64,000 nucleotides of DNA from Krischvirus LF73P4: sequence record OZ035795.1; one strand, written 5' to 3'. Positions within the stretch are counted from its first letter, which is position 1. Every line of letters begins with the position of its first letter. A model generated the notes under the pieces. The model did no database searches. It saw nothing but the letters and a program-made list of their open reading frames with translations, and was not told the DNA's origin. The position numbers were made by a program, and so were the translations under genes. This document shows positions 2,686 through 55,772 of the stretch, in pieces.

Positions 2686-4348
2686 AACCTTGCGCTATCA
2701 AAATATAATGAGCGTGGGTGCTGAACCTGTTGAGATTCAGCTAGACGGATTCAAAAAGACACTAATCACTGGTGTTAACGGTGCTGGTAAATCAACAATG
2801 ATCGAGGCGCTTTGCTTTGTGTTGTTCGGTAAACCGTTTCGTAGTATCAAGAAAGGCCAATTGATTAACAGCGTCAACAAAAAGAAACTGTTAGTCGAAG
2901 TCTGGTTTGAACTGGACGGGAAAGAGTTTTATATAAAACGTGGTCAAAAACCGGAAGTATTCGAAGTGCATCGCGACGGTCAAAAGATCGACGAGAGCGC
3001 AAGCACCAAAGACTTTCAGGAATATTTTGAAGGTATCATAGGCATGAACCTAGCCAGCTTCAAACAGATCGTTGTTTTAGGCACTGCTGGTTATGTTCCG
3101 TTTATGAGTCTTCCGGCAGCGGGTCGCCGTAAACTGGTCGAGGATTTGCTTGATATTGCTACGCTAGGCGAAATGGATAAACTGAATAAAGCGTATGTGC
3201 GCGAGATTACCCAGAATATCCAAATGCAGGAAATGAAAGCTAATCACGTTCAGCAACAAATCAACACTCATAAAAAGTACATAGAAGACGCTAGCAAGGC
3301 GAGTGCCGAGAATCTCCAGCGTTTACAGAATATGTATGATAAAGAGGTAGAATCGGCTAAAGCATTTAAAGCCGAAGAAACGCGCTTGACCGATGAGCTA
3401 TTGGCTGTTGTTATGCCGGAAGATCCTAGCGCGGTATTGGCTAAAATTAATACTGCTATCGCACAGATTGGTGCGCAGATCCAGAACTTTGACCGTGTTA
3501 TCCATATGCACGAGAAAGGCGGGATCTGTCCTACGTGCACACAACCGATCATTCAGGGTAATGATCAGACTGTACGCGAACAAAAAGCACAAGCGGAACA
3601 TAAACTGTTTCTGATTGACGAGAAACGCGTAGAATACGCCGAGAAAGCAAATTCTTTCCAGGCAGCACAAACTAAGGTCTTGGAAATTAAACGCGCTATA
3701 GAGTCACAGAGAGCGAATTTAACGGCATCTGTAGGTCGTGCTAAACAGATCCAGAAAGCAATGCAGGAATTGCAAAAAGAAAGGGTTGACAATTCCGAAG
3801 AACTTGCTAAACTGGAACACGAACTGGTAGAGATTACTAATGAAAAATCAAAGCTAGTTCTTGAAAAATATCACCGTGGATTTGTAACAGAAATGTTGAA
3901 GGATTCCGGTGTTAAGGCGTCTATCGTCAAGAAATATATTCCATATTTCAATGATCGGATTGCGTATTATCTTGATATTATGGAAGCGGATTATATCTTT
4001 ACGCTAGATGAAGAGTTTAACGAAACAATCAAATCACGGGGGCGTGAATCGTTTTCGTATACATCGTTCAGTCAAGGCGAAAAGGCACGTATTGACCTTG
4101 CGATGCTCTTTACATGGCGTGATGTTGCTGGTAAAGTATCTGGTACTAATATTTCTTTGTTGGTACTCGACGAAATTTATGATGGGGCTACGGACGTTCA
4201 GGGCGTAAAAGCACTTGATTCCATCATTGACAAGTTAGATGATAACGTGTATATTATCAGCCATCGTGACCATAACCCTGATGATTTTAGCCGTCATCTC
4301 AAGATGGTTAAACGTGGGCGATTCACTGAAATGAATGTTAACATTTGA
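2666..4348 (+). CDS. 46: recombination endonuclease subunit gp46 (Rad50/SbcC-like ATPase)
   Basis: 560 aa from ATG 2666 (GGAG upstream); Walker A GVNGAGKST; N-terminus resembles T4 gp46. Confidence 0.9.
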   Translation: MAKLNFKTLRYQNIMSVGAEPVEIQLDGFKKTLITGVNGAGKSTMIEALCFVLFGKPFRSIKKGQLINSVNKKKLLVEVWFELDGKEFYIKRGQKPEVFEVHRDGQKIDESASTKDFQEYFEGIIGMNLASFKQIVVLGTAGYVPFMSLPAAGRRKLVEDLLDIATLGEMDKLNKAYVREITQNIQMQEMKANHVQQQINTHKKYIEDASKASAENLQRLQNMYDKEVESAKAFKAEETRLTDELLAVVMPEDPSAVLAKINTAIAQIGAQIQNFDRVIHMHEKGGICPTCTQPIIQGNDQTVREQKAQAEHKLFLIDEKRVEYAEKANSFQAAQTKVLEIKRAIESQRANLTASVGRAKQIQKAMQELQKERVDNSEELAKLEHELVEITNEKSKLVLEKYHRGFVTEMLKDSGVKASIVKKYIPYFNDRIAYYLDIMEADYIFTLDEEFNETIKSRGRESFSYTSFSQGEKARIDLAMLFTWRDVAGKVSGTNISLLVLDEIYDGATDVQGVKALDSIIDKLDDNVYIISHRDHNPDDFSRHLKMVKRGRFTEMNVNI

Positions 4349-5355: not shown

Positions 5356-5385
5356 TTAATTGATTAACATGATAAAGGTGATTTG

Positions 5386-6072
5386 ATGAAACTGACTAAA
5401 GAAACCATTGCTACCCTGAAAAACTTTTCCGCTATTAACCCAGGTATCATCCTGAAAAAAGGAAACGTCCTAATCACCAAAAACATGACAAACGTTGTAT
5501 ATGGTGAAGCGACTCTGAATCAAGAACTGGAACACGAAATCGGGATCTATGATCTTAACTCTTTCCTGGGCATTCTGAATCTGGTGGGCGATGAAGCAGA
5601 TATTACGGTTGATAACCGCACCGGAAACATTCGTGTGTCTAATGATCGTCTGAAAATTAATTATCCTGGTGCTAGTGCTGCTGCTATCGTATCACCGAAA
5701 GGCCGAGTTACTCCACCTGCAAGCGATGTAGATTACGAACTGAGCAACGACGATCTGAAACAGCTTATGAAAATGAGCAATCAGCTTAAAGTGGATCGCC
5801 TTGAATTTCTACCGATTGATGGTCGTCTGATGATCAAAGGCTGGGAAGAGATTGACAAAAATAATCCTAATGAGATGTTTTGTCTTGATATGGGCGAATA
5901 TACCGGAACCGCAGACTTCCATTTCTTTATTCGTAAAGATAACATGAAACTGGTTGCTACTGACTTCGGCGATTACAAACTGAGCTTCACTCGCCGTAAG
6001 GCTGTATGGCTGGCAAGTGAAACCGTATCTTATATGATCGCGTGTGACCTTGACTCCAGCTACACCGACTAA
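5386..6072 (+). CDS. 45: sliding clamp gp45
   Basis: 228 aa, same length and clear similarity to T4 gp45 as recalled; followed by clamp loader genes. Confidence 0.9.
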   Translation: MKLTKETIATLKNFSAINPGIILKKGNVLITKNMTNVVYGEATLNQELEHEIGIYDLNSFLGILNLVGDEADITVDNRTGNIRVSNDRLKINYPGASAAAIVSPKGRVTPPASDVDYELSNDDLKQLMKMSNQLKVDRLEFLPIDGRLMIKGWEEIDKNNPNEMFCLDMGEYTGTADFHFFIRKDNMKLVATDFGDYKLSFTRRKAVWLASETVSYMIACDLDSSYTD

Positions 6073-8075: not shown

Positions 8076-8104
8076 TTGACAAACTAAGTCGATTCCCCTA
8101 TAAT
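8076..8104 (+). promoter_or_regulatory. sigma70-type promoter TTGACA-17-TATAAT upstream of gene 43
   Basis: -35 at 8076-8081, -10 at 8099-8104. Confidence 0.5.
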
Positions 8105-8136: not shown

Positions 8137-10815
8137 ATGTATTTTCTGTCATGTGAGCGAGTGGGTGATAAGATCTACGAGCGTTATATTGATGATGCTG
8201 GACAAGAACAAGAGCGTTACGTTGAATATACGCCAACTTTATTTCATCATGCCGCGCCCGGTATGGTTACGAATTATAAAGATATCTATGGCAAGCCTTG
8301 CATTGCTAAAAAATTCCCATCTATGAACGAGGCCAACAAATGGCGTAAAAAGATGGGAGAAATGGGGCAGGAGGCACTAGGGATGGATGATTTTATCATC
8401 TCCTATCTGTCCGATACATATAAAGGCGAGATTCGATATGACCGAAATAAAATCCGTGTAGCCTGGGTTGATATTGAGGTCACTGCACCGGAATTTCCTA
8501 AACCAGAAGAAGCGAAATATCCTATCGATGCTATTACGCATTATGATTCCGTACATGATCGTTTCTTTGTATTTGATTTGAAAGGAAAAAACGGTGAAAT
8601 CTGGGAAGCAAGCAAGTCTATTCTTCGACCTGATATTGTAGAGCGCGTTGTTTATAACGTCTATGACACAGAAGATGAATTGCTGTTAGAATACATCCGA
8701 TTCTTTGAGGAAAACCGACCCGTTGGTTTCACTGGCTGGAACACAGAAACATTCGATATTCCATATATCATTAAACGTATCAGTAATAAGTTCGGAAGTA
8801 GAACCGCTAACCGTCTAAGCCCATGCGGTAAGATTAAATCCCGAATCTCGCAGGATGATTTTGGCAACGAGCGTGAAGCATTTACGATCATGGGGATCGA
8901 AAGCCTTGATTATATTGACCTGTACAAGAAATTTAGCTTTACGACTCAACCAACATATGCATTAGATTATGTTGCTGAATATGAGACCGGAATCGGTAAG
9001 GTTGATTATGATGGTCCGTTAAAGAAATTGCGTGATGACAACCATCAACTTTACATCGATTATAACATCGGCGACGTTGATCGTGTGCTGGCGATTGATA
9101 AAAAGCGTGGATTTATCGATCTTGTGTATAGTCTATGTTTCTATGCAAAGATTAAATTTAACCATGTTTATAACCCGATGAAAGTATGGGATGCTATTAT
9201 CTTCGGATCTCTGAAAGCAGAGGGTAAAGTAGTACCGGAAAATAAGATACAGCCTAAGCAGACTTATCCTGGCGCATTCGTAAAAGAACCTGTACCGAAT
9301 GCTTACCGTTGGATGATGAGCTTTGACTTAACAAGTCTGTACCCATCTATTATTCGACAGGTTAATATTTCTCCTGAAACAATCGCTGGATCTTTTGATG
9401 CTGCACCGATGCACGAGTATATCAATAAAACTGCACCACGTCCGAGTGATGAGTATTCTTGCTCGCCTAACGGATGGATGTATAGAAAAGATATTCACGG
9501 TATCGTACCGATTGAGATTAAAAAGGTATTCGATCAGCGTAAGCAGTACAAAAACATGATGTTGGCATGTGATCGCAATGCTGAACTCTGTAAAGCGATT
9601 CTACACGATGAAAATCATGTTTATGGGGGAACCATTAGCTATAGCGTTGAAGTGCGTCACGACTTCGATGAAGCGTTTAAATCGATGCTTTCTGAATTGA
9701 GCAAAGATGCCTTAGAGAAATTGCTGGAAGAATGTAAAGACGAGTCGATCTTGTGCAATACAAACCAGCTTTCTCGAAAAGTTTTGATCAACTCCCTTTA
9801 TGGTGCGTTGGGGAATCCTAAATTCCGTTTTTATGATCTCCGTAACGCTAGTGCGATCACACTGTTCGGTCAGCTTGCAATTCAGTGGATTGAGCGTAAG
9901 ATTAACGAATACTTAAACGAGCTTTGCGGAACGACTGATTTTGCATATGTTCGTTATTGTGATACTGACTCCGTTTATGTGCTGGTTAACAATGTTATTG
10001 ATAAGGTTGGCGGGGAAGACCGTTTCGACGATACCGAAAAACTTGTTGACTTCCTTGATAATTTCGGTAAACATCGAATGGAACCTATTATCGACAAGGG
10101 ATATCGCGAGTTATGCGAGTACATGAACAACTATGAGCACTTGATGTTTATGGACCGTGAGGCAATTGCTGGTCCTCCGTTGAAATCTGCGGGTATCGGT
10201 GGATTCTGGACTGGTAAAAAGCGTTATGCTCTTAATGTTTGGGATATGGAAGGAACGCGCTTTGCTGAACCTAAGCTAAAAATCATGGGCTTGGAAACGC
10301 AACGTAGCTCCACCCCTAAAGCATGTCAGAAATCACTGAAAGAATGTATTCGCCGTATGTTGCAGGAAGGTGAAGAGTCATTGCAGGAATACTACGGTAT
10401 TTTTGAGCAAGAATTTAGAAAACTTGACTATCTTGATGTTGCTGCGGTATCATCTGCAAACAACCTACAGAAATACAGCGATTCAAACGGGTATCCGATT
10501 AAGGGTTGTCCGTATGCGGTTAAGAGTGTATTGTGTTATAATCGTAATGCTCGAAAATTCGGACTAGACCCGATTCGTGAGGGTGAGAAGGTTATGATTG
10601 TACCGCTTAAAGACCGAAATCCGTTTGGAGAAATCTGTTTTGGTTGGTTGTCTGGTACTCGTATTCCACCAGAAATTGAATCAGAGGTGTTGAAGTGGTT
10701 GGACTGGCCTTTGTTGTTTAATAAGACTTTCGTCAAACCACTGGAGAACATTACCACGGCTGCAAAGCTGCAATATGAAAAAGTTGCTTCACTGACTGAC
10801 CTGTTTGACATTTAA
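8137..10815 (+). CDS. 43: DNA polymerase gp43 (family B, with 3'-5' exonuclease)
   Basis: 892 aa from ATG 8137 (AAGGAG upstream); motifs DIEV, SLYPS, YCDTDS; collinear with T4 gp43. Confidence 0.95.
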   Translation: MYFLSCERVGDKIYERYIDDAGQEQERYVEYTPTLFHHAAPGMVTNYKDIYGKPCIAKKFPSMNEANKWRKKMGEMGQEALGMDDFIISYLSDTYKGEIRYDRNKIRVAWVDIEVTAPEFPKPEEAKYPIDAITHYDSVHDRFFVFDLKGKNGEIWEASKSILRPDIVERVVYNVYDTEDELLLEYIRFFEENRPVGFTGWNTETFDIPYIIKRISNKFGSRTANRLSPCGKIKSRISQDDFGNEREAFTIMGIESLDYIDLYKKFSFTTQPTYALDYVAEYETGIGKVDYDGPLKKLRDDNHQLYIDYNIGDVDRVLAIDKKRGFIDLVYSLCFYAKIKFNHVYNPMKVWDAIIFGSLKAEGKVVPENKIQPKQTYPGAFVKEPVPNAYRWMMSFDLTSLYPSIIRQVNISPETIAGSFDAAPMHEYINKTAPRPSDEYSCSPNGWMYRKDIHGIVPIEIKKVFDQRKQYKNMMLACDRNAELCKAILHDENHVYGGTISYSVEVRHDFDEAFKSMLSELSKDALEKLLEECKDESILCNTNQLSRKVLINSLYGALGNPKFRFYDLRNASAITLFGQLAIQWIERKINEYLNELCGTTDFAYVRYCDTDSVYVLVNNVIDKVGGEDRFDDTEKLVDFLDNFGKHRMEPIIDKGYRELCEYMNNYEHLMFMDREAIAGPPLKSAGIGGFWTGKKRYALNVWDMEGTRFAEPKLKIMGLETQRSSTPKACQKSLKECIRRMLQEGEESLQEYYGIFEQEFRKLDYLDVAAVSSANNLQKYSDSNGYPIKGCPYAVKSVLCYNRNARKFGLDPIREGEKVMIVPLKDRNPFGEICFGWLSGTRIPPEIESEVLKWLDWPLLFNKTFVKPLENITTAAKLQYEKVASLTDLFDI

Positions 10816-10832
10816 GATAAAGTGTGTATAAT
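10805..10832 (+). promoter_or_regulatory. sigma70-type promoter TTGACA-16-TATAAT overlapping end of gene 43
   Basis: -35 at 10805-10810, -10 at 10827-10832; GGCGGGT/ACCCGCC hairpin at 10833-10859 downstream. Confidence 0.45.
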
Positions 10833-37916: not shown

Positions 37917-40697
37917 TTAGAATTTAAAATATTTACTAATTTTGCGAGCAATTTTAGTAAAGAAAGGAGTTTTCAATTCTTTAATTTCTTCACTCATTTC
38001 CTGAATAGCCTTAATTAAAAGAGCATTCACTGCCGAGTTAGAAATTGTCAGAACATCAGATCCATCAACTTCAACTTTAGATACAGCTTCCGGCAATTCT
38101 TTTTCAAGATCCTGAGCAATAATACCAGCTTCACGTTTAATCACACTACGATCTTTAATAGACTTAACTTTATCGTAAGTATAAACTTTCAGACGGCATA
38201 CTTTTTCAAGTGCTCCGTTTTCTAACTCTTCTTTATTAATCTTAAGACGGGAGTCAGAACGAATATACACATCGCTAAAGCTACCATTTCCTGGTGTATA
38301 AAAGAACCCATCATGATGGAATTCAAACACAGCTTGTGGGTGTCCAGCATCAGGAGAAGCCTCCGTGGATCCGACACGAATGATTGCTTGCCCCCACTGT
38401 GATGGAATACGACGCATACCAAAGTCAACAGCGGTGCTATATCCTTGATTGGTTATAACGCTTCTTGCTTTAAGAATAGGATAATAACTATCTTGACCAA
38501 CATAACCATGATCAACGAATAATGGAGCTTCTACTCGCCATTGGTTGCCCCAATCACCTGGTTGTCTGGCAACCCAACTTGCACCATTGATATACATACG
38601 ATCGCGGTTAACGTTAACCATTAAGGTATTTTGCGGGTTTAAAGATATCTCGCCAGAATTTGTAATATAAATTGCAGAATTACTAGCATAACTAAAAAAC
38701 CCTAATCCGTTATCAGCGCCTCCTTTCCCTATATACCAATTATTATTACCATCACAACTACCCAACAAATAAACCGAATCTCCAGATGACGGAGCATTCA
38801 AAACTATTGCGTCCGAACCACGATTAACAGTTATTTTATCGGAAGATTCTATTTGACCAAAGAATTTAGTTTTAATTGCACCAGTCGCTAAAGTACGTTC
38901 AGTGGAAAAATGAGCGCCTTTGCTATCTTCTAACTGAATAATGTTATCACGAGCGTTATTGCTATCACCCCAATGGTTAAATTTAAAATAATCTCGTGAT
39001 CCTAAACGTCCGGCGTCAAAAGTCATCAAGCCTTTCATGTTAATATCACCACCAAAAAATGCGGTGAGAGAATCACGTTTTAATTTTAAAACGTTAGCAC
39101 CACTAGTACCACCCAAAGTAACATCACCAGTTCTTAATTCATAACGGAAAGGTCTATTTGTATTAAAGTTTCCATCTTGATCATTTTCGTCGGTGGAAAG
39201 AATATAAAGACTCTCTCCATCATTACGTAAAAATGCACCAAATTTTCCGCCATACATACGGAATGCATTCAACGAGCGGAATTTAACTTCTGTTTTAAAT
39301 GTGGTAGTGTTATTAAGGTTAACAGTAGAGTTAAAGTTAACTGCGCCATTAAAATCTTGTTTAGCAGTCCAAGTATGTGATCCGTCTTCAAGAACAACAC
39401 GGCGAACTGTACAAGTTCTATTTCCCGGATTACCAGCAACACGAACGACAAAATAACGGTAGTTTGTCTGGGATACAGTACCACGCCAAACCTGAACAGT
39501 ACGCCCTGTGCCAGTGTGTTCGCTAGGACCGACAGAAAACATAACCAAGTTTCCGTCAATCGCACCCCAATCCATATTTGCTGGCATGTTCTTTATTTTG
39601 TTCAAAGGAACACTAAACATACTACCAGGGACAAAATCAAAGGTTTGCCAGTCTAGCTCCGCTAATTGAGATTTAACACCACCCATACCCAGAGTGATCG
39701 GCATAGAATAGGACGTATATACTTCGTACCAATTTCCCCAGATGTTATTTGTCATCGCACGTTCAAACACGCGAGATCGCGTAGTTGCACCCGTTCCTGC
39801 GGTAGTGAAACGTTGGAAAATAGCGGCACCGGAAGCACGCTGTTTAACCTCAAGCAATCCGGTCATCTCAACCGGAACACCTTCTGCAACTGGACGGTTA
39901 ATAACGGCATCAGTCCCTAAAATGTTATACAAGCCAGGAGAACGAAAATTATTAAGATCCCCGTCATAGAATGTGTTTGGAGTAACCATACCTACTTGTT
40001 GCCACGGTCCCCAATTCGGAGCTTCTGGATCCCATGCACCAGCAAGACAACGAACATATACAACACCCATTCGGGTAGTATAACGTTGCGTGCGAGAATA
40101 GTTACCACCTTCATAAATTTCTAAAAGACCTTGCGCGAGACCACCTTCTTCTGGGTAATTTCGAGAAAATGATGCAATGGAACTTAAACTATTTCGCCAT
40201 AACCCAAAATGAGAAGCATCACCTAAAGTATTCAAGTCTAGTGTAGTTGATAGTGGACGTGTGCCAGTTTGAATATTGCGCCACGGACCCCATGGACCAT
40301 CTACGCCATTCCATTTAGCAGACAAAGAACGGATATAAACGTTACCAGACCGAACAGTATAACGCTGAGTGCCAGCAAATTGACCAGCCACAAATACTTC
40401 TAATACACCTACAGCATTCTCTTCTGGGAATTTATTTGCTGGCTGCGCATTTGTTGAAGTTGATTTAGACCAAACGCCAGTAAATTTACCAGTAGGTCCA
40501 TAATTATCTAAATTTGCATCAGATGGCAACTCACCGCGAAAGTGTCCCAAAGTAATTACATTATTGCTGTCATCTTTTGTATATAGTTCTCGATCCGCTA
40601 GGTTAATAGCAAGTTCACCCGGAGTTAGAATATTCGCATCCGGCTTGCGACCTGCCGTACTTGTTCTTTTAAATTGGATTCTCTGTAAATCTGCCAT
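37917..40697 (-). CDS. 37: long tail fibre distal subunit gp37, with C-terminal intramolecular-chaperone-like segment
   Basis: 926 aa; N-terminus QRIQFKRTSTAG...GELAINL like T4 gp37; SDSRLK motif about 113 aa from C-terminus. Confidence 0.9.
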   Translation of the reverse strand: MADLQRIQFKRTSTAGRKPDANILTPGELAINLADRELYTKDDSNNVITLGHFRGELPSDANLDNYGPTGKFTGVWSKSTSTNAQPANKFPEENAVGVLEVFVAGQFAGTQRYTVRSGNVYIRSLSAKWNGVDGPWGPWRNIQTGTRPLSTTLDLNTLGDASHFGLWRNSLSSIASFSRNYPEEGGLAQGLLEIYEGGNYSRTQRYTTRMGVVYVRCLAGAWDPEAPNWGPWQQVGMVTPNTFYDGDLNNFRSPGLYNILGTDAVINRPVAEGVPVEMTGLLEVKQRASGAAIFQRFTTAGTGATTRSRVFERAMTNNIWGNWYEVYTSYSMPITLGMGGVKSQLAELDWQTFDFVPGSMFSVPLNKIKNMPANMDWGAIDGNLVMFSVGPSEHTGTGRTVQVWRGTVSQTNYRYFVVRVAGNPGNRTCTVRRVVLEDGSHTWTAKQDFNGAVNFNSTVNLNNTTTFKTEVKFRSLNAFRMYGGKFGAFLRNDGESLYILSTDENDQDGNFNTNRPFRYELRTGDVTLGGTSGANVLKLKRDSLTAFFGGDINMKGLMTFDAGRLGSRDYFKFNHWGDSNNARDNIIQLEDSKGAHFSTERTLATGAIKTKFFGQIESSDKITVNRGSDAIVLNAPSSGDSVYLLGSCDGNNNWYIGKGGADNGLGFFSYASNSAIYITNSGEISLNPQNTLMVNVNRDRMYINGASWVARQPGDWGNQWRVEAPLFVDHGYVGQDSYYPILKARSVITNQGYSTAVDFGMRRIPSQWGQAIIRVGSTEASPDAGHPQAVFEFHHDGFFYTPGNGSFSDVYIRSDSRLKINKEELENGALEKVCRLKVYTYDKVKSIKDRSVIKREAGIIAQDLEKELPEAVSKVEVDGSDVLTISNSAVNALLIKAIQEMSEEIKELKTPFFTKIARKISKYFKF

Positions 40698-40741
40698 TTT
40701 ATAAAATCCTTAACGGTTGTTAGAATAATATTATTTAGAAA

Positions 40742-40760
40742 AGCGGGGATTATCCCCGCT
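40742..40760 (-). terminator. stem-loop AGCGGGGA-tta-TCCCCGCT, partial terminator/attenuator between gp36-like gene and gene 37
   Basis: 8-bp perfect inverted repeat; short U-run follows on - strand. Confidence 0.4.
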
Positions 40761-40764
40761 AGAA

Positions 40765-42255
40765 TTAGAAAGTACCAAAATCAATTACCGCATTAAGCGG
40801 AACAGCGCCAACATCATCAGGAGTTGGTTTGTGTCCTTCGTGGTATAATTCAAATGTATCGGTGTCCTGAGTATTGTTGCGTGATTTAACGAAAATAATT
40901 TTAGAATCATGTGTGATGCCTAGTTTCTCGTGCGCTTTAATATCACTAACACGATGAATCATTGCTGTGCCATCTAAGCTATTAAGTCCAGCGTAGCAAT
41001 TATCACCATTATAGTTAGCTTTTGCGGTACGAACGCCGTTTGCAGCGGGAACTGTCAAAGCACCTCTCATGGTATCGCCAGTCACATTAACATAGCGAGC
41101 ATCAGCCAATTTACGGTGATCTACATAGTTCCATGCGGTCCATGATTCATTAGAACAAGAACGCCAGCACATCGGATGATCAATAGATTCAGGATAGTAT
41201 ACCTGAACAATTCGACGAGTACCGACCGCATCTTCTGGGCGATATACCATCAAAACGCCGTTATAATAGCTATCAGACGGTTTATTAGTACCTGATCCAG
41301 CATTTTCCACACGATAGATACCGCGATTAATAAGAGTGTTCCAATCAACGTTTCCAATGATTGTTGGATTTGCTACCATTGATTTTTTCTCAAAGTAGCT
41401 CAAACGAACCAATTCATTAGGACCAGCAGGATCGTTTGTCGCCAACATTCTAGGCGCTTGCAAGTTACCTTCCATAATATCACCAGCACGTTTAACCTGT
41501 GCATCATTGGTGACATTACCTAGTCCAACATCGGCTTTAGTCGGTTTATTGTTGGTGTGGTAGAATCTACCTGCCTTGCCATTAACAGAAATTGTCGGCT
41601 CGTTTTTGCTACTGAATGCCAAAGTATCAAGACTATTTCCAAAATAAATGGCATTAGAATCGAAAGCAATGAAACCACGATCCCGCGCAAGTATTTTCGA
41701 ATTAACATCAAGTTTAAATGTAGCCGTGTTTAAATTATACGTTCCCGTGAGAGTATCACCGCGACGAGACACCAAATCCAAATCATTGTTTGTCGGCTTA
41801 TTAACAGGACTATAGACGCGTTGACCAGTGTCTTTAATGGTTGTCCCTTCGATGGTCCCTTTAGTTTTAAAATCACCTGTGGTAGTGTCAATATAAGCCA
41901 TGATAACATCATCACGAGCATTAACAAAACCAATAGATTTCCACGAATGCAAACCCCAACTTACACCATCAAAGTTAGCCGCATCGCTCTTTCCTTTAAA
42001 GATCCCGTTCTTTTTGGTTTCTCCACCGGATGCGCTACCTACGCTTAAACCTTCCTCAAAATGGACCAGTTTCTGAAATGTACCACCCTCAGATGCACTA
42101 ACAGCATCAAAATCGGCAGCCGAAGGTTTATCAAAAGCGGTATAGATTTTATGACCTTTATAGAAAAGCTGATCACCCGCTGGCTGGATCGTCAAGTTTC
42201 CTTGCGTCCAAATGGGAGATCCGCCTACAGTAGATCCATGTTTCAAATCTGCCAT
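40765..42255 (-). CDS. 36: long tail fibre hinge/connector protein, gp36-like (enlarged)
   Basis: 496 aa; N-terminus MADLKHGSTVGGSPIWTQGN...PAGD resembles T4 gp36; directly upstream of gene 37. Confidence 0.6.
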   Translation of the reverse strand: MADLKHGSTVGGSPIWTQGNLTIQPAGDQLFYKGHKIYTAFDKPSAADFDAVSASEGGTFQKLVHFEEGLSVGSASGGETKKNGIFKGKSDAANFDGVSWGLHSWKSIGFVNARDDVIMAYIDTTTGDFKTKGTIEGTTIKDTGQRVYSPVNKPTNNDLDLVSRRGDTLTGTYNLNTATFKLDVNSKILARDRGFIAFDSNAIYFGNSLDTLAFSSKNEPTISVNGKAGRFYHTNNKPTKADVGLGNVTNDAQVKRAGDIMEGNLQAPRMLATNDPAGPNELVRLSYFEKKSMVANPTIIGNVDWNTLINRGIYRVENAGSGTNKPSDSYYNGVLMVYRPEDAVGTRRIVQVYYPESIDHPMCWRSCSNESWTAWNYVDHRKLADARYVNVTGDTMRGALTVPAANGVRTAKANYNGDNCYAGLNSLDGTAMIHRVSDIKAHEKLGITHDSKIIFVKSRNNTQDTDTFELYHEGHKPTPDDVGAVPLNAVIDFGTF

Positions 42256-42288
42256 AAAGTAACCTCAAAAATTAGTTATAGTTCCGAG

Positions 42289-42296
42289 TATTTATA
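42289..42296 (-). promoter_or_regulatory. T4-type late promoter box TATAAATA
   Basis: Exact TATAAATA on - strand, 33 nt upstream of gp36-like ATG. Confidence 0.55.
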
Positions 42297-42465
42297 GAAT
42301 GTTAACAAAATATCGCTTCGCGACGTGCCGTAGGCACTGACTACTTTTTAACCGAAACAAATTTTCTATTATTCTAAAGATCTTTCTTCGTTTTGGTTAT
42401 GTTTTAACCAATAACTATATTTTTATACAGTAATAAATAAAACGGGTACTATACGAGGACTTCTT

Positions 42466-42720
42466 ATGACAGAAGACATTTTGTTAAAACTCTATGATCG
42501 TCTGGATAACGAATTAGCAACATTGCGGGGTGAAGTTCTCTATTTGTCTAAATGCAATACAGATCTGCTTAAGCAGATTGCAGAAAGGGATGATCAAATA
42601 AAATCCCTTTCAGGTGCATTACGTGATCGCGACAAGGCATTAGAGATTTTACAGCGTGTTACCAATAAGGAAGAATTAAAAGACTTCTTACATGGTTATG
42701 CTCATGCCATCGATCTATAA
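42466..42720 (+). CDS. hypothetical coiled-coil protein
   Basis: 84 aa; GAGGA 6 nt upstream of ATG. Confidence 0.45.
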   Translation: MTEDILLKLYDRLDNELATLRGEVLYLSKCNTDLLKQIAERDDQIKSLSGALRDRDKALEILQRVTNKEELKDFLHGYAHAIDL

Positions 42721-52200: not shown

Positions 52201-52330
52201 GAGTCCACTGTTTGACCAGTCGGCGGTAACATTCTCTATGTTCCGTGAACTTGTAGATAAAAGGTTGAAGGATAATATAGGGAATCCACGCGATCCGAAG
52301 AATCCGACACAGAGGAAAATTAATGGCTAA
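49244..52330 (+). CDS. 7: baseplate wedge initiator gp7
   Basis: 1028 aa; size and order match T4. Confidence 0.8.
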   Translation: MIKAPSVTSLTIEKLSANQAYITWDDVGENFFYFVELAETRTRDGEIIPVDELSWVNLGYTADQNWFEDKNLFPEYYYKFRVAVAAEGFEQSKWVETEEFQTFKTNAYNFSMMREFNLANEFIKEKFTYDNREYVKFNTDLIQASLMKEDFVFSPEYANMTNISNYIVVDENFHEIQDHIEKVCTDINRTMLAEMNGVLYLFERFQPIVKVSNDKGQSWKAYKAFNDRVGNPVSRTCVYQSKTTTYVLGYDRIFYGRQASDTRWSADDVRFSDDTITFAKVGDENDLGFDVEVFGVFSRLTGDTTKYAEAMACSDDYLWVGAKDVIRRIRLKNTPVDTVQGSPTFGEKIFDPDVIRVTGNDKAVIQKMDVIDGKLLVFVTGEVKQRYQDPTKPENVVPSDDAGVYLIGSDGLSFQRVFGNTPQEREYIQHGFSNMSTNGDEVFISHYNHHFESILPDPETAEKYELGEAVKYSQEPTYLTDKKIHQTTFRASYDDLRIWELGPQAYYNEADYTWMRRNGVRVWITNDNRPLVVYPEVVYTQEVDTSGILDKNRINREVYDKGTVTCYLNNVKFEGFKQYASGVMFHKNTGEIIGFYQFNYRVRDQVGVYWKPTNVAFVAELQNQVREVPWVPVHYDREQDPDLRPLLNKMTPDSFLLENENFRKFSEYYLQFLSDGSGTYYNKLKNLIKNKYPREQDAYEYLWSEMNKRNIYADKNKRDAVVRFFESRKSDFYSTKGVEASYKFLFKLLYNEDVEIEVESQAGLEYDIVVSSTNIDEDIVGRTIYTPTGRANVTYLEREYEGGRLRWRVTIHNLIGRFEEGQVIKSEKTAFEGMILVGVRGKELLSSSIDYINRSRSQYTMKIKSALPVSRYANDVMRFVHPVGFGFIGVTLLTMFINSGLSMKHTETIIQSLKNYKFDSGLPSVYPDRVADLDVDGNIKIDPLTGKPLYLTSPTIGEEFPVPPEYDQENSELFHGLKASERRFAMSPLFDQSAVTFSMFRELVDKRLKDNIGNPRDPKNPTQRKING

Positions 52331-53318
52331 TGAAAATAGTGTGATCTATCGCTCAATCATTACTAGCAAATTCAGAACAGAAAAACTTCTGAACTTCTAT
52401 AATTCTGTAGGCGATGGAGCAAATCAAATTACAATTTATGGAACGTTTGGACGTTCGGAGCCGTGGTCAGAAAACGAAAAAGAGGTGGGCTTTGCCCCAC
52501 CTTATCCGACCGATTCAACGGCTGGTGTTGTTGACATGTGGACCCATATGATGGGGGCGGTTAAGATTAACAAATCACTTCTTGATGCGGTTATCCCTCG
52601 TAAAGATTGGGGTGATACCGGACAGGATAACCCGCGCACGTTCTTTATCAATGACATTGTTGTCGTAAACTCAGCACCATATAACCGTACAGATGTTGGT
52701 AGCGGCTGGATGGTTTACCGTGTAACTGATGTTCCTGATCGCGGTTACTGCTCGATTTCAAGCATTGACGCTAAAGTAGAGTGTTTGAAGTTGGGCGGAA
52801 AGTGGACACCTACCCATGAATCAATTGCGCCACCTGTAGGAAAGGGCGATTCTATTGATATGGGTGATGGGTATCGTTGGGAATATCTGTACACAATTCC
52901 GCCTGATGCGGCGATCAACCGTTGCACCAATGAACATATTGTTGTACCGTTCCCCGATGAACTGCGACAAGATCCGGCGCGTTGGGGCTATGACAATGTG
53001 ATCACCTGGTATAATGACTATAATCTGCTTTATCGGCTGAAAGTAGTAACTTTGCGTTTTCAGGCTTATATGGACTCTGCGCAATTCCCAACTACCGCGT
53101 TAGTGGGTAATACTGGTTTCCGTCAGTTAAGCATTATCCTTAACCCATTGGAAAAGAAAGCACGCCCTAGCGATCCAGACGTTAAAGCGGTTAAATATAA
53201 GTACCGACCGCAAGACTTAGAGCCACACTCAGGAGAAATGATCTACATGGAAAACCGACAACCTATCGTTCGGTCATTAGATCAAACAGAACTTGTTTCT
53301 GTATTGTTTGAGTTCTAA
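52323..53318 (+). CDS. 8: baseplate wedge protein gp8
   Basis: 331 aa; size and order match T4. Confidence 0.8.
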   Translation: MANENSVIYRSIITSKFRTEKLLNFYNSVGDGANQITIYGTFGRSEPWSENEKEVGFAPPYPTDSTAGVVDMWTHMMGAVKINKSLLDAVIPRKDWGDTGQDNPRTFFINDIVVVNSAPYNRTDVGSGWMVYRVTDVPDRGYCSISSIDAKVECLKLGGKWTPTHESIAPPVGKGDSIDMGDGYRWEYLYTIPPDAAINRCTNEHIVVPFPDELRQDPARWGYDNVITWYNDYNLLYRLKVVTLRFQAYMDSAQFPTTALVGNTGFRQLSIILNPLEKKARPSDPDVKAVKYKYRPQDLEPHSGEMIYMENRQPIVRSLDQTELVSVLFEF

Positions 53319-53331
53319 GTGTATGATTTTA

Positions 53332-53366
53332 AAAGCCAATTCGAGAGAGTTGGCTTTTTCCATTTT
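53332..53366 (+). terminator. rho-independent terminator after gene 8
   Basis: AAAGCCAA / TTGGCTTT hairpin followed by TTTTT. Confidence 0.55.
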
Positions 53367-53371
53367 TGGTG

Positions 53372-53399
53372 TTGACAATATTATTTGGTAAGGTATAAT
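53372..53399 (+). promoter_or_regulatory. near-consensus sigma70-type promoter TTGACA-16-TATAAT
   Basis: -35 at 53372-53377, -10 at 53394-53399, 30 nt upstream of ATG 53429. Confidence 0.55.
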
Positions 53400-53428
53400 G
53401 CTCACATCTAAACAACGGAGGATAAATT

Positions 53429-53686
53429 ATGGCACGTCGTAAATTTACAGATAATTGTGAAGCAATTCAGGTATCCCCTTGCGGTTGGTATGTGATCGCG
53501 AACGGTGAAAAGATCGGAGAGATCATCGATCATACTCATTCATCACTAGCCGATTACACCGATGAACTATGGGAGGGTATCAACTTCATGAATGACACTA
53601 AACGATTCAAGACTATCGACGAAGCTATCTATTTTGTGTATAATCCAACTTTCGGTATGTGGGGAACTAGAAAATGGCACGCGTAA
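53429..53686 (+). CDS. hypothetical protein (cassette gene 1)
   Basis: 85 aa; GGAGGA 6 nt upstream. Confidence 0.5.
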   Translation: MARRKFTDNCEAIQVSPCGWYVIANGEKIGEIIDHTHSSLADYTDELWEGINFMNDTKRFKTIDEAIYFVYNPTFGMWGTRKWHA

Positions 53687-54003
53687 ATATTAAACTGCAT
53701 TATACAATGGGTAAACCAAAACATCCAATGCATAAAGTGTTTTGGGGCTTGCATCTTCAAGAAAAATGGCATGATAACTATTGGTTTTGTGACCATGATA
53801 AGAAGTGGCATTCTCAAGATGAAGTTAATGCGATGATGGAACATGGTATAAAATTTAATTACTCTAATTATGACCATAGCATTACTTGTATTCGAAAATT
53901 GAAACGGTTTATTCGAAAGAATCCGCAATTTAAAAACTTTGTGTTCTTTATGTCTCATGTTTATTTGGGGCATAGCGTTACCGTAACAGCAAAGGTTAAA
54001 TAA
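53674..54003 (+). CDS. hypothetical His/Trp-rich protein (cassette gene 2)
   Basis: 109 aa; start overlaps upstream ORF. Confidence 0.5.
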   Translation: MARVNIKLHYTMGKPKHPMHKVFWGLHLQEKWHDNYWFCDHDKKWHSQDEVNAMMEHGIKFNYSNYDHSITCIRKLKRFIRKNPQFKNFVFFMSHVYLGHSVTVTAKVK

Positions 54004-54842
54004 TGGCACGACTTTCTAAACAAGAGCAAAAATTACACGATCGGGCGATGGAGCTAATCAATTCAGATCGCCCATTGACCTATGAAGAAAAAGAATTTTG
54101 CTATAACAACTATCATGGCGATGGGCTAGGTGGTTCCGGTGCATTCTTTACCCCAGAAGGGCTTGCCTGGGATTTTACCATTGATGCACACTGCACCGGA
54201 AAAGTATTGGACCTTTGTGCTGGGATCGGTCGTTTATCTTTTTGTATGTTGCATCGCTGTAAGCCAGAAAAGATCGTATGCGTCGAACTCAATCCAGAAT
54301 TTGCGAGGATTGGCAAGCGACTATTACCGGAGGCAGAATGGATCACCAGCGATGTATTCGAATTTGAGTCAAACGAGAAATTCGATGTTGTAATTAGCAA
54401 TCCACCTTTCGGGAAAATCAATACAACCGACACAAAGGATGTATTTGAGTACACTGGCGGCGAATTTGAATTTAAGGTTATGACATTAGGCCAGAAGTTT
54501 GCCGATGTAGGTTATTTTATTGTTCCTACTGGTTCCGCTGGTTTTGCCTATTCCGGTAGACCTTATTATGATGGATCAGTGAAGTCTAATAAATATCTAA
54601 AATGGAGCAAACAAACTGGTTTGGTGACTTATGCCGGATGTGGGATCGATACATCAATCTATCGCGATGAATGGCACAGTACCAACGTTTTAACAGAAGT
54701 GGTTGAGGTTCGGTATTACGAGAAAGAAGCCGTAGAAGCGCCTAAATCGCGTCCTAACGAACAAATAGAAGAAAGTAAGGAGATTACCTTACCGGAACAA
54801 GAAACAGCGTCTGGGACGCTCTCAGACTTGTTTGACATTTAA
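54003..54842 (+). CDS. gamma-class N6-adenine-type DNA methyltransferase (cassette gene 3)
   Basis: 279 aa; motif X GAFFTPEGLA, motif I VLDLCAGIGRL, motif IV VISNPPFG. Confidence 0.75.
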   Translation: MARLSKQEQKLHDRAMELINSDRPLTYEEKEFCYNNYHGDGLGGSGAFFTPEGLAWDFTIDAHCTGKVLDLCAGIGRLSFCMLHRCKPEKIVCVELNPEFARIGKRLLPEAEWITSDVFEFESNEKFDVVISNPPFGKINTTDTKDVFEYTGGEFEFKVMTLGQKFADVGYFIVPTGSAGFAYSGRPYYDGSVKSNKYLKWSKQTGLVTYAGCGIDTSIYRDEWHSTNVLTEVVEVRYYEKEAVEAPKSRPNEQIEESKEITLPEQETASGTLSDLFDI

Positions 54843-54846
54843 TTAT

Positions 54847-54872
54847 AAGCCGTCCTCCTGGGCGGCTTTTTT
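54847..54872 (+). terminator. rho-independent terminator after methyltransferase
   Basis: AAGCCG...CGGCTT hairpin followed by TTTTTT. Confidence 0.6.
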
Positions 54873-54882
54873 GTATGTATTT

Positions 54883-54890
54883 TATAAATA
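54883..54890 (+). promoter_or_regulatory. T4-type late promoter box TATAAATA for gene 9
   Basis: Exact TATAAATA, 27 nt upstream of ATG 54918. Confidence 0.6.
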
Positions 54891-54917: not shown

Positions 54918-55772
54918 ATGGCACAAGTTCCAAAGAAAAGAATAGACACAGGTACGGTCGGCAATCCATCGACTGGCGATATCTTATATGATGGCGGTAA
55001 TAAAATTAACGATAACTTTGATTCAATATATGACGCATTTGCTGATCAACGTCTAAAAGAGATTGATCATGGTGCTGGTCGAATGGTTATTCATGCCACG
55101 GGATACTATCAGAAACACCCACGACAAAGCTATGCAGGATCGGCGGTAGAGATTGGTAGCTTACATGATATTGACACAACTCAAGGCGCATTAATAGCAA
55201 TTCTTCCTAAAGCTAAAGTTGGTGAGGGTGTTGTGTTCATAAATAGTAACGGTAGCTTTTCGGCAACAACACCACTAAACATTAGAACTCAAGCAGGAGA
55301 TTCTATTAGCGGGTATTCCGGTGACGCGGTAATAACTCAACCTTTCTCAAAAGTCACCGTCTGGTGTACTGCCGTCGAAGGTAGTAGAGTTACCTGGCGG
55401 CTGGGCATCGAAAGTATGTTTACCGACACAACCACACCACTAGATAGGACAGTTAATGTAACTGGAGTTGCAACCAACGTTGCTATTGCAGCAAAAACAG
55501 AATATGTATCAATTAAACTATTAACAACCGCTAGCAATACGACGGGTTCAAAAATGCGCTCAAGCGAAACTCTATTGATGATTGATGCCAGAGCCGGAAA
55601 AGTTTACGCGACAGAATATGCGGTTTTACAGAAAACAGAAGACGAATTATACACGGTTCGTTATTTCATTGGTTCCGGCGATAAAGTATATGCAGAGTAT
55701 AAGGCTACTGGCGAAAATATTCGTTTAGCAGTTAAAGCCACAGACACTATTAAAATCGGGGTTGCTACATGA
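54918..55772 (+). CDS. 9: baseplate wedge / long tail fibre socket protein gp9
   Basis: 284 aa; size and order match T4. Confidence 0.8.
   Translation: MAQVPKKRIDTGTVGNPSTGDILYDGGNKINDNFDSIYDAFADQRLKEIDHGAGRMVIHATGYYQKHPRQSYAGSAVEIGSLHDIDTTQGALIAILPKAKVGEGVVFINSNGSFSATTPLNIRTQAGDSISGYSGDAVITQPFSKVTVWCTAVEGSRVTWRLGIESMFTDTTTPLDRTVNVTGVATNVAIAAKTEYVSIKLLTTASNTTGSKMRSSETLLMIDARAGKVYATEYAVLQKTEDELYTVRYFIGSGDKVYAEYKATGENIRLAVKATDTIKIGVAT

Follow-up and report, generated by a model that had tools for sequence, protein, structure and literature searches.

What is a DNA methyltransferase gene doing between two baseplate genes of a T4-type phage, and when and on which substrate would its product act? 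These questions are raised by a locus in the genome of Krischvirus LF73P4 (record OZ035795.1), which we analysed within a window of 64,000 nucleotides (nt) that can be assigned to the RB49/phi1/JSE group of Krischvirus and whose top public match is vB-Eco-KMB43 (99.9%). Here a cassette inserted between genes 8 and 9 encodes proteins of 85, 109 and 279 amino acids (aa), which we refer to by their open reading frames (ORFs) as ORF85, ORF109 and ORF279, the last being the methyltransferase. Positions given below are those of the window, and features lie on the + strand unless indicated otherwise. The explanation that we favour, on balance and with some reservation, is that ORF279 is an early, replisome-tethered orphan DNA methyltransferase that is carried by an autonomous unit within the late baseplate operon and probably serves an anti-restriction function. 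The most informative feature of the locus is one that does not figure in the initial annotation of this DNA, namely the polymerase-like C-terminus of the methyltransferase.

We have found that the methyltransferase (54003-54842) ends in GTLSDLFDI, while the gene 43 DNA polymerase encoded in the same window ends in ASLTDLFDI, as does gp43 of RB49. We took the last eight codons of gene 43 (SLTDLFDI, 10789-10812, read from the window) as the reference clamp-binding epitope; the final five residues of the two proteins are identical, and eight of the eight compared are identical or conservatively replaced. The ligands of the gp45 sliding clamp are the closely similar, hydrophobic as well as acidic C-terminal ends of gp43, gp55 and gp33, which are freely interchangeable, and the epitope of gp55 hangs on a linker that is divergent, variable in length and probably unstructured (PMC2988020). 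In RB49 the latter two proteins end in PSLDQFYEIEN (gp55) and TNTLDI (gp33). The peptide SGTLSDLFDI at the end of the methyltransferase (54813-54839; ETASGTLSDLFDI) is a putative epitope of the same kind, since it is located at the extreme C-terminus, is both hydrophobic and acidic and follows a divergent, unstructured linker as in gp55, although it is carried by a methyltransferase rather than by a polymerase or a transcription factor. The linker in question (aa 244-270, 54732-54812) comprises some 27 acidic and proline-rich residues, is predicted to be disordered (predicted local distance difference test score, pLDDT, <50) and varies in sequence and length between lineages. The proposed docking partner, the gene 45 sliding clamp, is encoded at 5383-6072 and has a C-terminus identical to that annotated for RB49 gp45.

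The resemblance is specific. When the C-terminal octapeptides of 589 ORFs, drawn from about 200 kb of Krischvirus sequence, were scored with BLOSUM62 against the end of gp43, gp43 itself scored 39 and the methyltransferase 32, which made it the top ORF end other than gp43, against a background of -7.3 +/- 7.1; DNA ligase scored 19 and gp33 12. Moreover, among nine Krischvirus genomes none of the 9 tail positions varies, compared with 5 of 30 in the linker and 11 of 240 in the core. These observations suggest that the methyltransferase may act on phage DNA while attached to the replication machinery. We note separately that the RB49 gene 30 DNA ligase (L018 40127-41623 in our numbering) ends in NTVKEVFDV; as the next-best match to the end of gp43 after the methyltransferase, the ligase may also be a client of gp45 in Krischvirus.

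Are such tails found elsewhere in the family? An extra C-terminal segment is present in the copies from T4-type phages and absent from all of the prophage copies sampled, and 83 of the 120 closest family members have no more than 12 residues after the core. Diverged metagenomic lineages end in TLDFVDFSEI (which contains a T4-like LDF motif), SLSMFDI and TLTDLFDI. In Matisse the methyltransferase ends in SDLFTFTIE and gp43 in SLNDLFGDW, and in RB16 the corresponding ends are NLFTFTIE and SLNTLFGDDW. We considered, and rejected, a strict co-variation of the two tails across genera, which is only partial: strong in Krischvirus, limited in Matisse to the DLF that both tails contain, and loose in RB16. 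In a metagenomic lambdoid phage a homologue (L036 10001-10768) immediately follows the lambda-type replication genes O and P and precedes NinB; its last residues are QQLDLFGEAA (EEQQLDLFGEAA). For their replication lambdoid phages rely on Pol III and the beta clamp of the host, and the end of the homologue resembles QL[S/D]LF, the consensus beta-clamp-binding motif of bacteria. It is possible, and we put it forward tentatively, that the methyltransferase family has repeatedly gained C-terminal peptides matched to the clamp available to the carrier, gp45 in T4-type phages and beta in lambdoid ones.

Were that so, the family would provide a viral counterpart of the association between DNMT1 and PCNA, in which methylation would be coupled to replication, possibly processive, and would mark only DNA that passes through the phage replisome. 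DNMT1 carries a short interaction motif for the PCNA clamp, so that methylation follows the replication fork (PMC9690074). The likeness lies in a DNA methyltransferase with a short clamp-interaction motif and is a functional analogy only, as DNMT1 is a C5-cytosine enzyme rather than an NPPF amino-methyltransferase, uses a PIP box and a different clamp, and serves epigenetic inheritance where the phage enzyme would serve evasion of defence. We found no report in the literature of a phage or bacterial DNA methyltransferase that is recruited by a sliding clamp. To our knowledge neither T4 Dam, which like the cassette enzyme is an orphan methyltransferase encoded by a phage, nor any type II enzyme has a clamp-type tail. 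As far as we could establish, therefore, the polymerase-like tail is a new observation, and a clamp-tailed methyltransferase would be an undescribed variant.

This line of argument presupposes that ORF279 acts on DNA. Its catalytic core (aa 1-243, 54003-54731) contains, in this order, motif X GAFFTP (aa 46-51), motif I LCAGIG (aa 71-76) and motif IV NPPF (aa 133-136); the latter two are invariant in an alignment of 37 sequences, and GAFFTP is invariant or nearly so. The presence of motif X (xFFTP/FYTP) on the N-terminal side of motif I marks the gamma class of DNA enzymes, and the order X (FFTP), I (LCAGIG), IV (NPPF) is that of M.TaqI, the Eco57I family and the HsdM subunits of type I systems. 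In Pfam the strongest match is to MTS (38.6 bits), a family that is not specific to DNA enzymes, while Eco57I exceeds its cut-off (28.2 against 25.3 bits) and N6_Mtase falls short of its own (16.7 against 20.4 bits); no NCBIfam model reached its cut-off. The best PADLOC matches are to the MADS DNA methyltransferase mad2 (5e-17) and then to type II DNA methyltransferases, with alignments beginning at aa 35-46, and the corresponding PHROG family (3820) is labelled DNA methyltransferase. The predicted model, whose only additional elements are a helical hairpin at the N-terminus (aa 6-36) and a small sub-domain towards the C-terminus (aa ~176-240), has a catalytic domain that superposes on M.TaqI (3.0-3.5 A) and on HsdM, although the best sequence match in the PDB is marginal (E 4e-4). 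The Pfam, PHROG and PADLOC matches, together with the superposition on M.TaqI, support the proposal of the initial annotation that DNA methylation is the most likely activity of the 279-aa protein. We find no restriction gene beside the methyltransferase in Krischvirus, in RB16, in Matisse or in the prophages and islands of bacteria; it adjoins baseplate genes and ORFans in Krischvirus, is surrounded by replication genes in RB16 and Matisse, and in bacteria lies next to genes of prophage ends or of the chromosome. As no cognate restriction endonuclease adjoins it, we regard the methyltransferase as an orphan, and its motifs indicate that it is probably a gamma-class amino-methyltransferase that modifies the N6 position of adenine in DNA.

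We note that two further methyltransferases are annotated in Krischvirus genomes outside the window, namely a Dam-like alpha-group enzyme (KMB43 40677-41492; L013 19657-20472) and the 238-aa product of RB49p189 (RB49 115890-116606; L018 31891-32607); when ORF ends were scored, a clamp-type tail was detected in neither. RB49p189 is annotated as a DNA methyltransferase and was considered as a paralogue of ORF279, but the two are unrelated by BLASTP.

The distribution of the family is consistent with a role in the protection of phage DNA. We identified about 1730 homologues of ORF279. The nearest of those outside Krischvirus (54-61% identity) occupy the outer margin of a prophage or island in Citrobacter, Enterobacter, Klebsiella, Salmonella and Pantoea, and remoter ones (43-50%) are found in Pseudotevenvirus (RB16, RB43), Slopekvirus (KP15, Matisse), Aeromonas, Sinorhizobium and jumbo phages. 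Genes 41 and 61 of the replication cluster flank the gene in both RB16 and Matisse. Krischvirus and Pseudotevenvirus are tabulated as being without hydroxymethylcytosine (hmC) (PMC12115623), and published work on KP15 and KP27 (Slopekvirus) gave no evidence of hmC. None of the hmC-containing Tequatrovirus or Mosigvirus appears among the methyltransferase matches listed, for which the organism counts leave little room, whereas these two genera supply hundreds of matches to gp9. Among T4-type phages, then, the family appears from its matches to be confined to genera described as hmC-free, namely Krischvirus, Pseudotevenvirus and Slopekvirus. The finding also points to an overlooked third methyltransferase in the Klebsiella phages KP15 and KP27, whose resistance to restriction is unexplained. 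In the Krischvirus SAP the cytosines are reported to be fully modified, while those of its 99.96%-identical sibling TB34 are canonical (PMC13390438). We examined the cassette as a possible cause of this modification and rejected it, given that SAP and TB34 both carry the cassette at equal identity and that the chemistry of NPPF enzymes is directed at exocyclic amines.

How might the gene come to be expressed from within a late operon? The left flank of the cassette is gene 8, which encodes a baseplate wedge subunit (52323-53318; Pfam PF09215 Phage-Gp8, E 7e-143; PHROG 977). It is followed by an intrinsic terminator (53331-53366) that consists of a hairpin (53331-53358) with a 12-bp stem and a GAGA loop and a run of T residues, the hairpin having a folding energy of -17.3 kcal/mol (z -5.1 against shuffles). 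A sigma70 promoter, TTGACA-16-TATAAT (53372-53399), matches the consensus at 12 of 12 positions; it is the sole such site between 51 and 57 kb, and the window as a whole contains 7 where 0.10 would be expected by chance, an enrichment of about 70-fold. The invariant Shine-Dalgarno sequence GGAGG (53417-53421) then precedes ORF85 (53429-53686), which overlaps ORF109 (53674-54003) by 13 nt, and ORF109 in turn overlaps the methyltransferase gene at a TAATG. A second intrinsic terminator (54847-54874; hairpin 54847-54868, -15.9 kcal/mol, z -4.7) closes the cassette and is followed by an invariant T4-type late promoter, TATAAATA (54883-54890), upstream of gene 9 (54918-55772; Pfam PF07880 T4_gp9_10_N, E 6e-41; PHROG 967), which encodes a baseplate wedge protein and tail-fibre connector. 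Although TATAAATA is under-represented in the 64 kb (3 copies against 6.1 expected), each of the three copies immediately precedes a late gene (36, 53 or 9) in the correct orientation. A scan of the cassette region with Rfam detected no RNA family, and a 126-aa ORF antisense to ORF109 (53629-54009, - strand) lacks support from homology and is probably spurious.

The terminator and the promoter together constitute the two halves of a PeSL, the promoter-early stem-loop cassette described in RB49 and phi1 (Arbiol, Comeau, Kutateladze, Adamia and Krisch 2010, PMC2839356; Comeau et al. 2014). Other copies of the PeSL were shown by lacZ fusions to have both promoter and terminator activity, one subclass has the stem-loop upstream of the -35 element in an AT-rich region, and a few PeSLs lie inside virion modules beside genes of unknown function; the stem-loops are said to block spill-over between early and late expression (PMC2839356). 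The element found here resembles these in being a consensus sigma70 promoter with an adjacent stem-loop terminator, in the same genus, upstream of ORFans; its hairpin lies 14 nt upstream of the -35 hexamer, and it is intergenic, between the gp8 stop codon (53318) and the Shine-Dalgarno sequence and start codon (53429) of ORF85. Variable cargo behind the promoter would also suit the modular shuffling mediated by PeSLs that these authors proposed. It differs in that only one PeSL flanks the cassette, the 3' end being a plain terminator and a late promoter, and in that the methyltransferase stays in place from one lineage to another instead of being shuffled. The main text of the PeSL paper (PMC2839356) makes no mention of the gene 8-9 locus or of the methyltransferase. 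In the same window, perfect sigma70 promoters with stem-loops at 8076-8104 and 10805-10832 bracket gene 43, which according to Arbiol et al. is also the case in RB49 and phi1, and the -35 element of the latter promoter falls inside the codons for the clamp-binding tail of gp43 (CTG TTT GAC ATT TAA), so that a protein motif and a promoter overlap.

The elements listed in the initial annotation, that is the terminators, the promoter, the three ORFs and the late box, are therefore all present where it had placed them, and they are conserved. Across the 9-10 Krischvirus genomes in which regulatory elements were compared, the -10 hexamer is invariant, the -35 hexamer is retained in 9 of 10 genomes and substitutions are concentrated in the promoter spacer; both hairpins have invariant stems (that of the first in 10 genomes) and changes in their loops; and from the methyltransferase to gene 9, a stretch that includes TATAAATA, the only changes are at two positions in the loop of the second hairpin. 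The locus can likewise still be described as an autonomous unit, in that its sigma70 promoter is conserved, terminators flank it and a late promoter restarts transcription behind it, and its description as an insertion also stands. Genes 8 and 9 are separated by only 9-63 bp in RB14 (Tequatrovirus), leB (Pseudotevenvirus), IME13 (Tulanevirus), which has the nearest gp9 outside Krischvirus, and the Klebsiella phage Lychee_ER51, and since the two genes adjoin each other in these four other T4-type lineages the cassette is a lineage-specific insertion.

The cassette is not, on the other hand, a new oddity, as the initial annotation had implied. The whole region is present in 58 of 58 public Krischvirus relatives, with at least 80% of the query covered in 57 of them; it is annotated in RB49 (AY343333) as RB49ORF140w-143w; the RefSeq record of GEC-3S already marks the first terminator, the promoter with its -35 and -10 elements and the second terminator; PHROG families exist for all three proteins (ORF85 16603, ORF109 12630); RB49ORF143w was listed as a Pfam methyltransferase match by Nolan et al. 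2006; and PeSLs as a type have been published. The cassette as such is thus already known and annotated and is ordinary for Krischvirus, being a PeSL-driven early island in a late operon. We note that the three genes occur in all close relatives but that the early promoter is conserved along with them rather than replaced by late-only expression, and the genus-wide presence of the genes therefore does not refute the earlier reading of the locus. In the RB49 record (L002 2629-2875) a frameshift splits ORF85, which is intact in every other genome examined, into 140w and 141w; the split is either a sequencing error or a strain-specific pseudogene.

The initial annotation treated the three genes as a single unit, a view that does not survive comparison with more distant relatives. 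Three diverged metagenomic lineages (L034/L035, L039 and L040) encode methyltransferases 63-70% identical to ORF279 in a similar layout of different sequence, in which the lineage's own hairpin, a sigma70-like promoter, the methyltransferase, a second hairpin and TATAAATA lead up to gene 9. The promoter is perfect in L034, has an extended -10 element in L039 and is weaker in L040. In L034/L035 and L040 the methyltransferase is the sole occupant of the space between genes 8 and 9, whereas in L039, a Krischvirus-like contig, it is preceded by a different ORFan of 154 aa (ORF154; 3673-4137) that has no PHROG match and is coupled to it via TAATG, which identifies the promoter-proximal position as a site of variable cargo. 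Conversely, homologues of ORF85 and ORF109 occur elsewhere without the methyltransferase. ORF85 is found in Krischvirus and a few unrelated rV5-like phages (~69% identity); in the Vequintavirus FV3 homologues of ORF85 and ORF109 are neighbours in a series of small hypothetical ORFs, the homology forming a 0.6-kb module that extends from the Shine-Dalgarno sequence to exactly the stop codon of ORF109, and most vequintaviruses carry ORF109 alone. Judged from these arrangements, the methyltransferase is the constant resident of the slot and the cassette is a mosaic. Because ORF85 and ORF109 form a separate module that occurs without the methyltransferase in rV5-like phages, they are not its obligate partners, and the suggestion that they might be partners of the methylase is accordingly disfavoured. 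We regard them instead as an independently mobile, fast-evolving ORFan module that occupies the promoter-proximal cargo slot.

What the two small proteins do is a question on which profile searches are silent: neither ORF85 nor ORF109 has a match in Pfam, NCBIfam or PADLOC, in keeping with the initial annotation, which had recognised no motif in them. Beyond Krischvirus and Vequintavirus, a word-indexed search of 5.8 billion proteins and an exhaustive HMMER search of 1.8 billion representatives yielded no relative of either protein other than one weak match (27% identity, E 3e-4). ORF109 is rich in His and Trp, and its AlphaFold2 model is poor (pLDDT 55). There are two alleles of ORF109 within Krischvirus (72-74% aa identity) and a third class in Vequintavirus, and divergence is limited to the N-terminal ~65 aa, the C-terminal third being identical. 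At the nucleotide level, the stretch from 53700 to 53900, in the N-terminal half of ORF109, is 62-77% identical to JSE and phi1 over about 200 nt, between flanks that are 94-99% identical or more. A hypervariable patch of this kind is the pattern expected of a protein engaged in an arms race. ORF85 and ORF109 are plausibly host-interaction or anti-defence proteins, and both of them, as well as ORF154, may be anti-defence genes.

All three proteins begin MAR on a shared start context, as the initial annotation had pointed out, and the octamer concerned, ATGGCACG, occurs exactly three times in the 64 kb, solely at the start codons of the cassette genes (53429, 53674 and 54003). We note that the FV3 homologues begin ATGTCAC and ATGGCAC and that members of the methyltransferase family generally begin MAR or MAK, so that the identity of the three starts is partly inherited. 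It is possible that the shared sequence contributes to translation initiation or contributed to microhomology-mediated insertion.

Taken together, these features suggest how the unit might operate. The first hairpin would halt late transcripts arriving from genes 6-8, and host RNA polymerase would transcribe the three translationally coupled genes early in infection from the PeSL promoter; the second terminator would end the unit, the two hairpins thereby insulating the cassette from the late baseplate operon, and TATAAATA would restart transcription for gene 9. The methyltransferase would then be made alongside the replisome proteins, and its flexible acidic linker would present the gp43-like peptide, by which the enzyme could dock on gp45 clamps at or behind the phage replication forks and modify the nascent phage duplex, probably at N6 of adenine. 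Such methylation would shield the cytosine-containing phage DNA from host restriction, a role that we infer because Krischvirus DNA contains ordinary cytosine. This mechanism is consistent with the occurrence of the family in hmC-free genera, with the placement of the gene among replication genes elsewhere and with the fact that RB49 DNA can be digested by cytosine-sensitive enzymes. If it is correct, it would explain how T4-type phages with ordinary cytosine (Krischvirus, Pseudotevenvirus and Slopekvirus) might achieve efficient and selective methylation of their DNA while replicating very fast, and the gp45 tool-belt would gain a client beyond the polymerase and the late-transcription factors, one that would compete with them for sites on the clamp.

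Several observations weigh against this reading. The early timing is read from the type of promoter only. The top NCBIfam scores of ORF279, although below threshold, are for PrmC and RsmC, and searches by fold score N6-adenine RNA enzymes (PH1948 and METTL5) as high as DNA enzymes. Unlike the characterised gamma-class enzymes, to which its similarity is marginal, ORF279 has a predicted core of ~240 aa in which no separate TaqI- or HsdS-like target-recognition domain is visible, and we found no experimental work on its protein family in the literature. RB49 virion DNA, which DraI, HpaII and NheI are able to cut, has been described as unmodified (PMC4041780), which means that any methylation must be site-limited and is not a modification of cytosine at the sites of these enzymes. 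The tails of the RB16 methyltransferase and gp43 are alike in general type only, and the homologues from Aeromonas phage CC2, phiM12 and GAP32 have no tail. Finally, gene 43 and the methyltransferase gene finish on the same 14 nt (TGTTTGACATTTAA), within which lies TTGACA; as this sequence holds the -35 hexamer of the PeSL that follows gene 43, part of the identity of the tails could be a legacy of recombination.

Could some of these points be better explained in another way? It is conceivable, although in our judgement unlikely, that ORF279 is an RNA or protein methyltransferase, either of the RsmC/RsmD/METTL5 type (m6A or m2G in rRNA) or of the PrmC type (glutamine in release factors), that takes part in the takeover of host translation and for which the tail is irrelevant. 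The matches that favour such an activity are sub-threshold or limited to the Rossmann core of ~170 aa that these enzymes share with ORF279, however, whereas DNA enzymes align to the model over 208-239 aa, and both the invariant GAFFTP and the PADLOC matches to DNA methyltransferases (5e-17) favour DNA. Nor would such an enzyme be expected from the location of the gene among replication genes in RB16, Matisse and the lambdoid phage, and a conserved clamp peptide of the polymerase type, attached by a flexible linker, would have no rationale in it. The shared 14 nt raise a different possibility, which we think rather improbable, that the sequence encoding DLFDI is a scar at the level of DNA, the 3' end of the methyltransferase gene having been copied from a PeSL recombination junction at gene 43 without the product binding gp45. 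The TTGACA at the ends of both genes, the fact that the promoter at 10805-10832 starts inside the last codons of gene 43 and the standing of PeSLs as recombination hot spots, with PeSL-mediated recombination documented in RB49 and phi1, would all fit. Yet the residues before the shared stretch are similar (S-L-T in gp43 and T-L-S in the methyltransferase) while their codons differ, no -10 element follows the TTGACA of the methyltransferase gene, and the diverged lineages have clamp-type tails (TLDFVDFSEI and SLSMFDI; LFTFTIE in RB16 and Matisse) that are written in other codons and lack TTGACA. A scar would also leave unexplained why the tail is invariant next to a variable linker, why no other ORF in ~200 kb has such an ending and why the homologues without a tail are those in elements that lack gp45.

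Two further alternatives concern the cassette rather than the tail. The three proteins might form one system, with ORF85 and/or ORF109 as specificity, regulatory or inhibitor subunits, as could be suspected from the tight translational coupling of the genes, the use of ATGGCACG at each of their starts and their joint presence in all 58 Krischvirus records. We consider this very unlikely, given that the same slot elsewhere holds the methyltransferase alone (L034/35 and L040) or together with the unrelated ORF154 (L039), that Vequintavirus has ORF85 and ORF109, or in most cases ORF109 alone, with no methyltransferase, that the module shared with FV3 stops exactly at the ORF109 stop codon and that about 1700 homologues in prophages and other phages lack ORF85 and ORF109 as neighbours. 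It is even harder to believe that the cassette is not early at all, its sigma70-like site being weak or silent in vivo and its genes being reached by read-through or transcribed late. The region is indeed not enriched in promoter-like sites at large (16 against 16.7 expected), but the site in question is a 12/12 match of a kind that is ~70-fold enriched in the window, its conservation tracks the hexamers and not the spacer, a strong terminator stands directly upstream of it, no TATAAATA is found upstream of the cassette, and lacZ was expressed at very high levels from PeSL promoters of this type (PMC2839356). On balance we favour an early DNA methyltransferase that would dock on the clamp.

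The initial annotation also likened the locus to a moron, a comparison that holds in part. Like the morons of lambdoid phages, the cassette is an autonomous unit of promoter, genes and terminator that separates two genes which adjoin each other in related phages, and homologues of its methyltransferase occupy classic moron positions at the ends of prophages. The comparison fails in that the unit is fixed across a genus of virulent phages and would act in the early lytic phase, with no expression from a prophage; we saw no lysogeny module in the window, and the resemblance is architectural only.

Lastly, we record two features of the surrounding sequence. At ~42,255-42,470 (junction near 42,302) the start of the tail-fibre gene 36 (- strand) is joined directly to a small ORF upstream of gene 2, and the segment from 1 to 42.3 kb (genes 47...43...rIIA, rIIB...t, 38, 37, 36) is inverted relative to RB49-type records. 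The two sides of this junction lie at separate places in 58 of 58 relatives, and the junction represents either an inversion of ~80 kb or an artefact of assembly or concatenation. The centre of gene 9 (55000-55600) is 80-87% identical at the nucleotide level to JSE, phi1 and SSG23, where the neighbouring sequence is 94-100% identical, which indicates that this segment is probably a recombinant or diversifying part of the tail-fibre connector.

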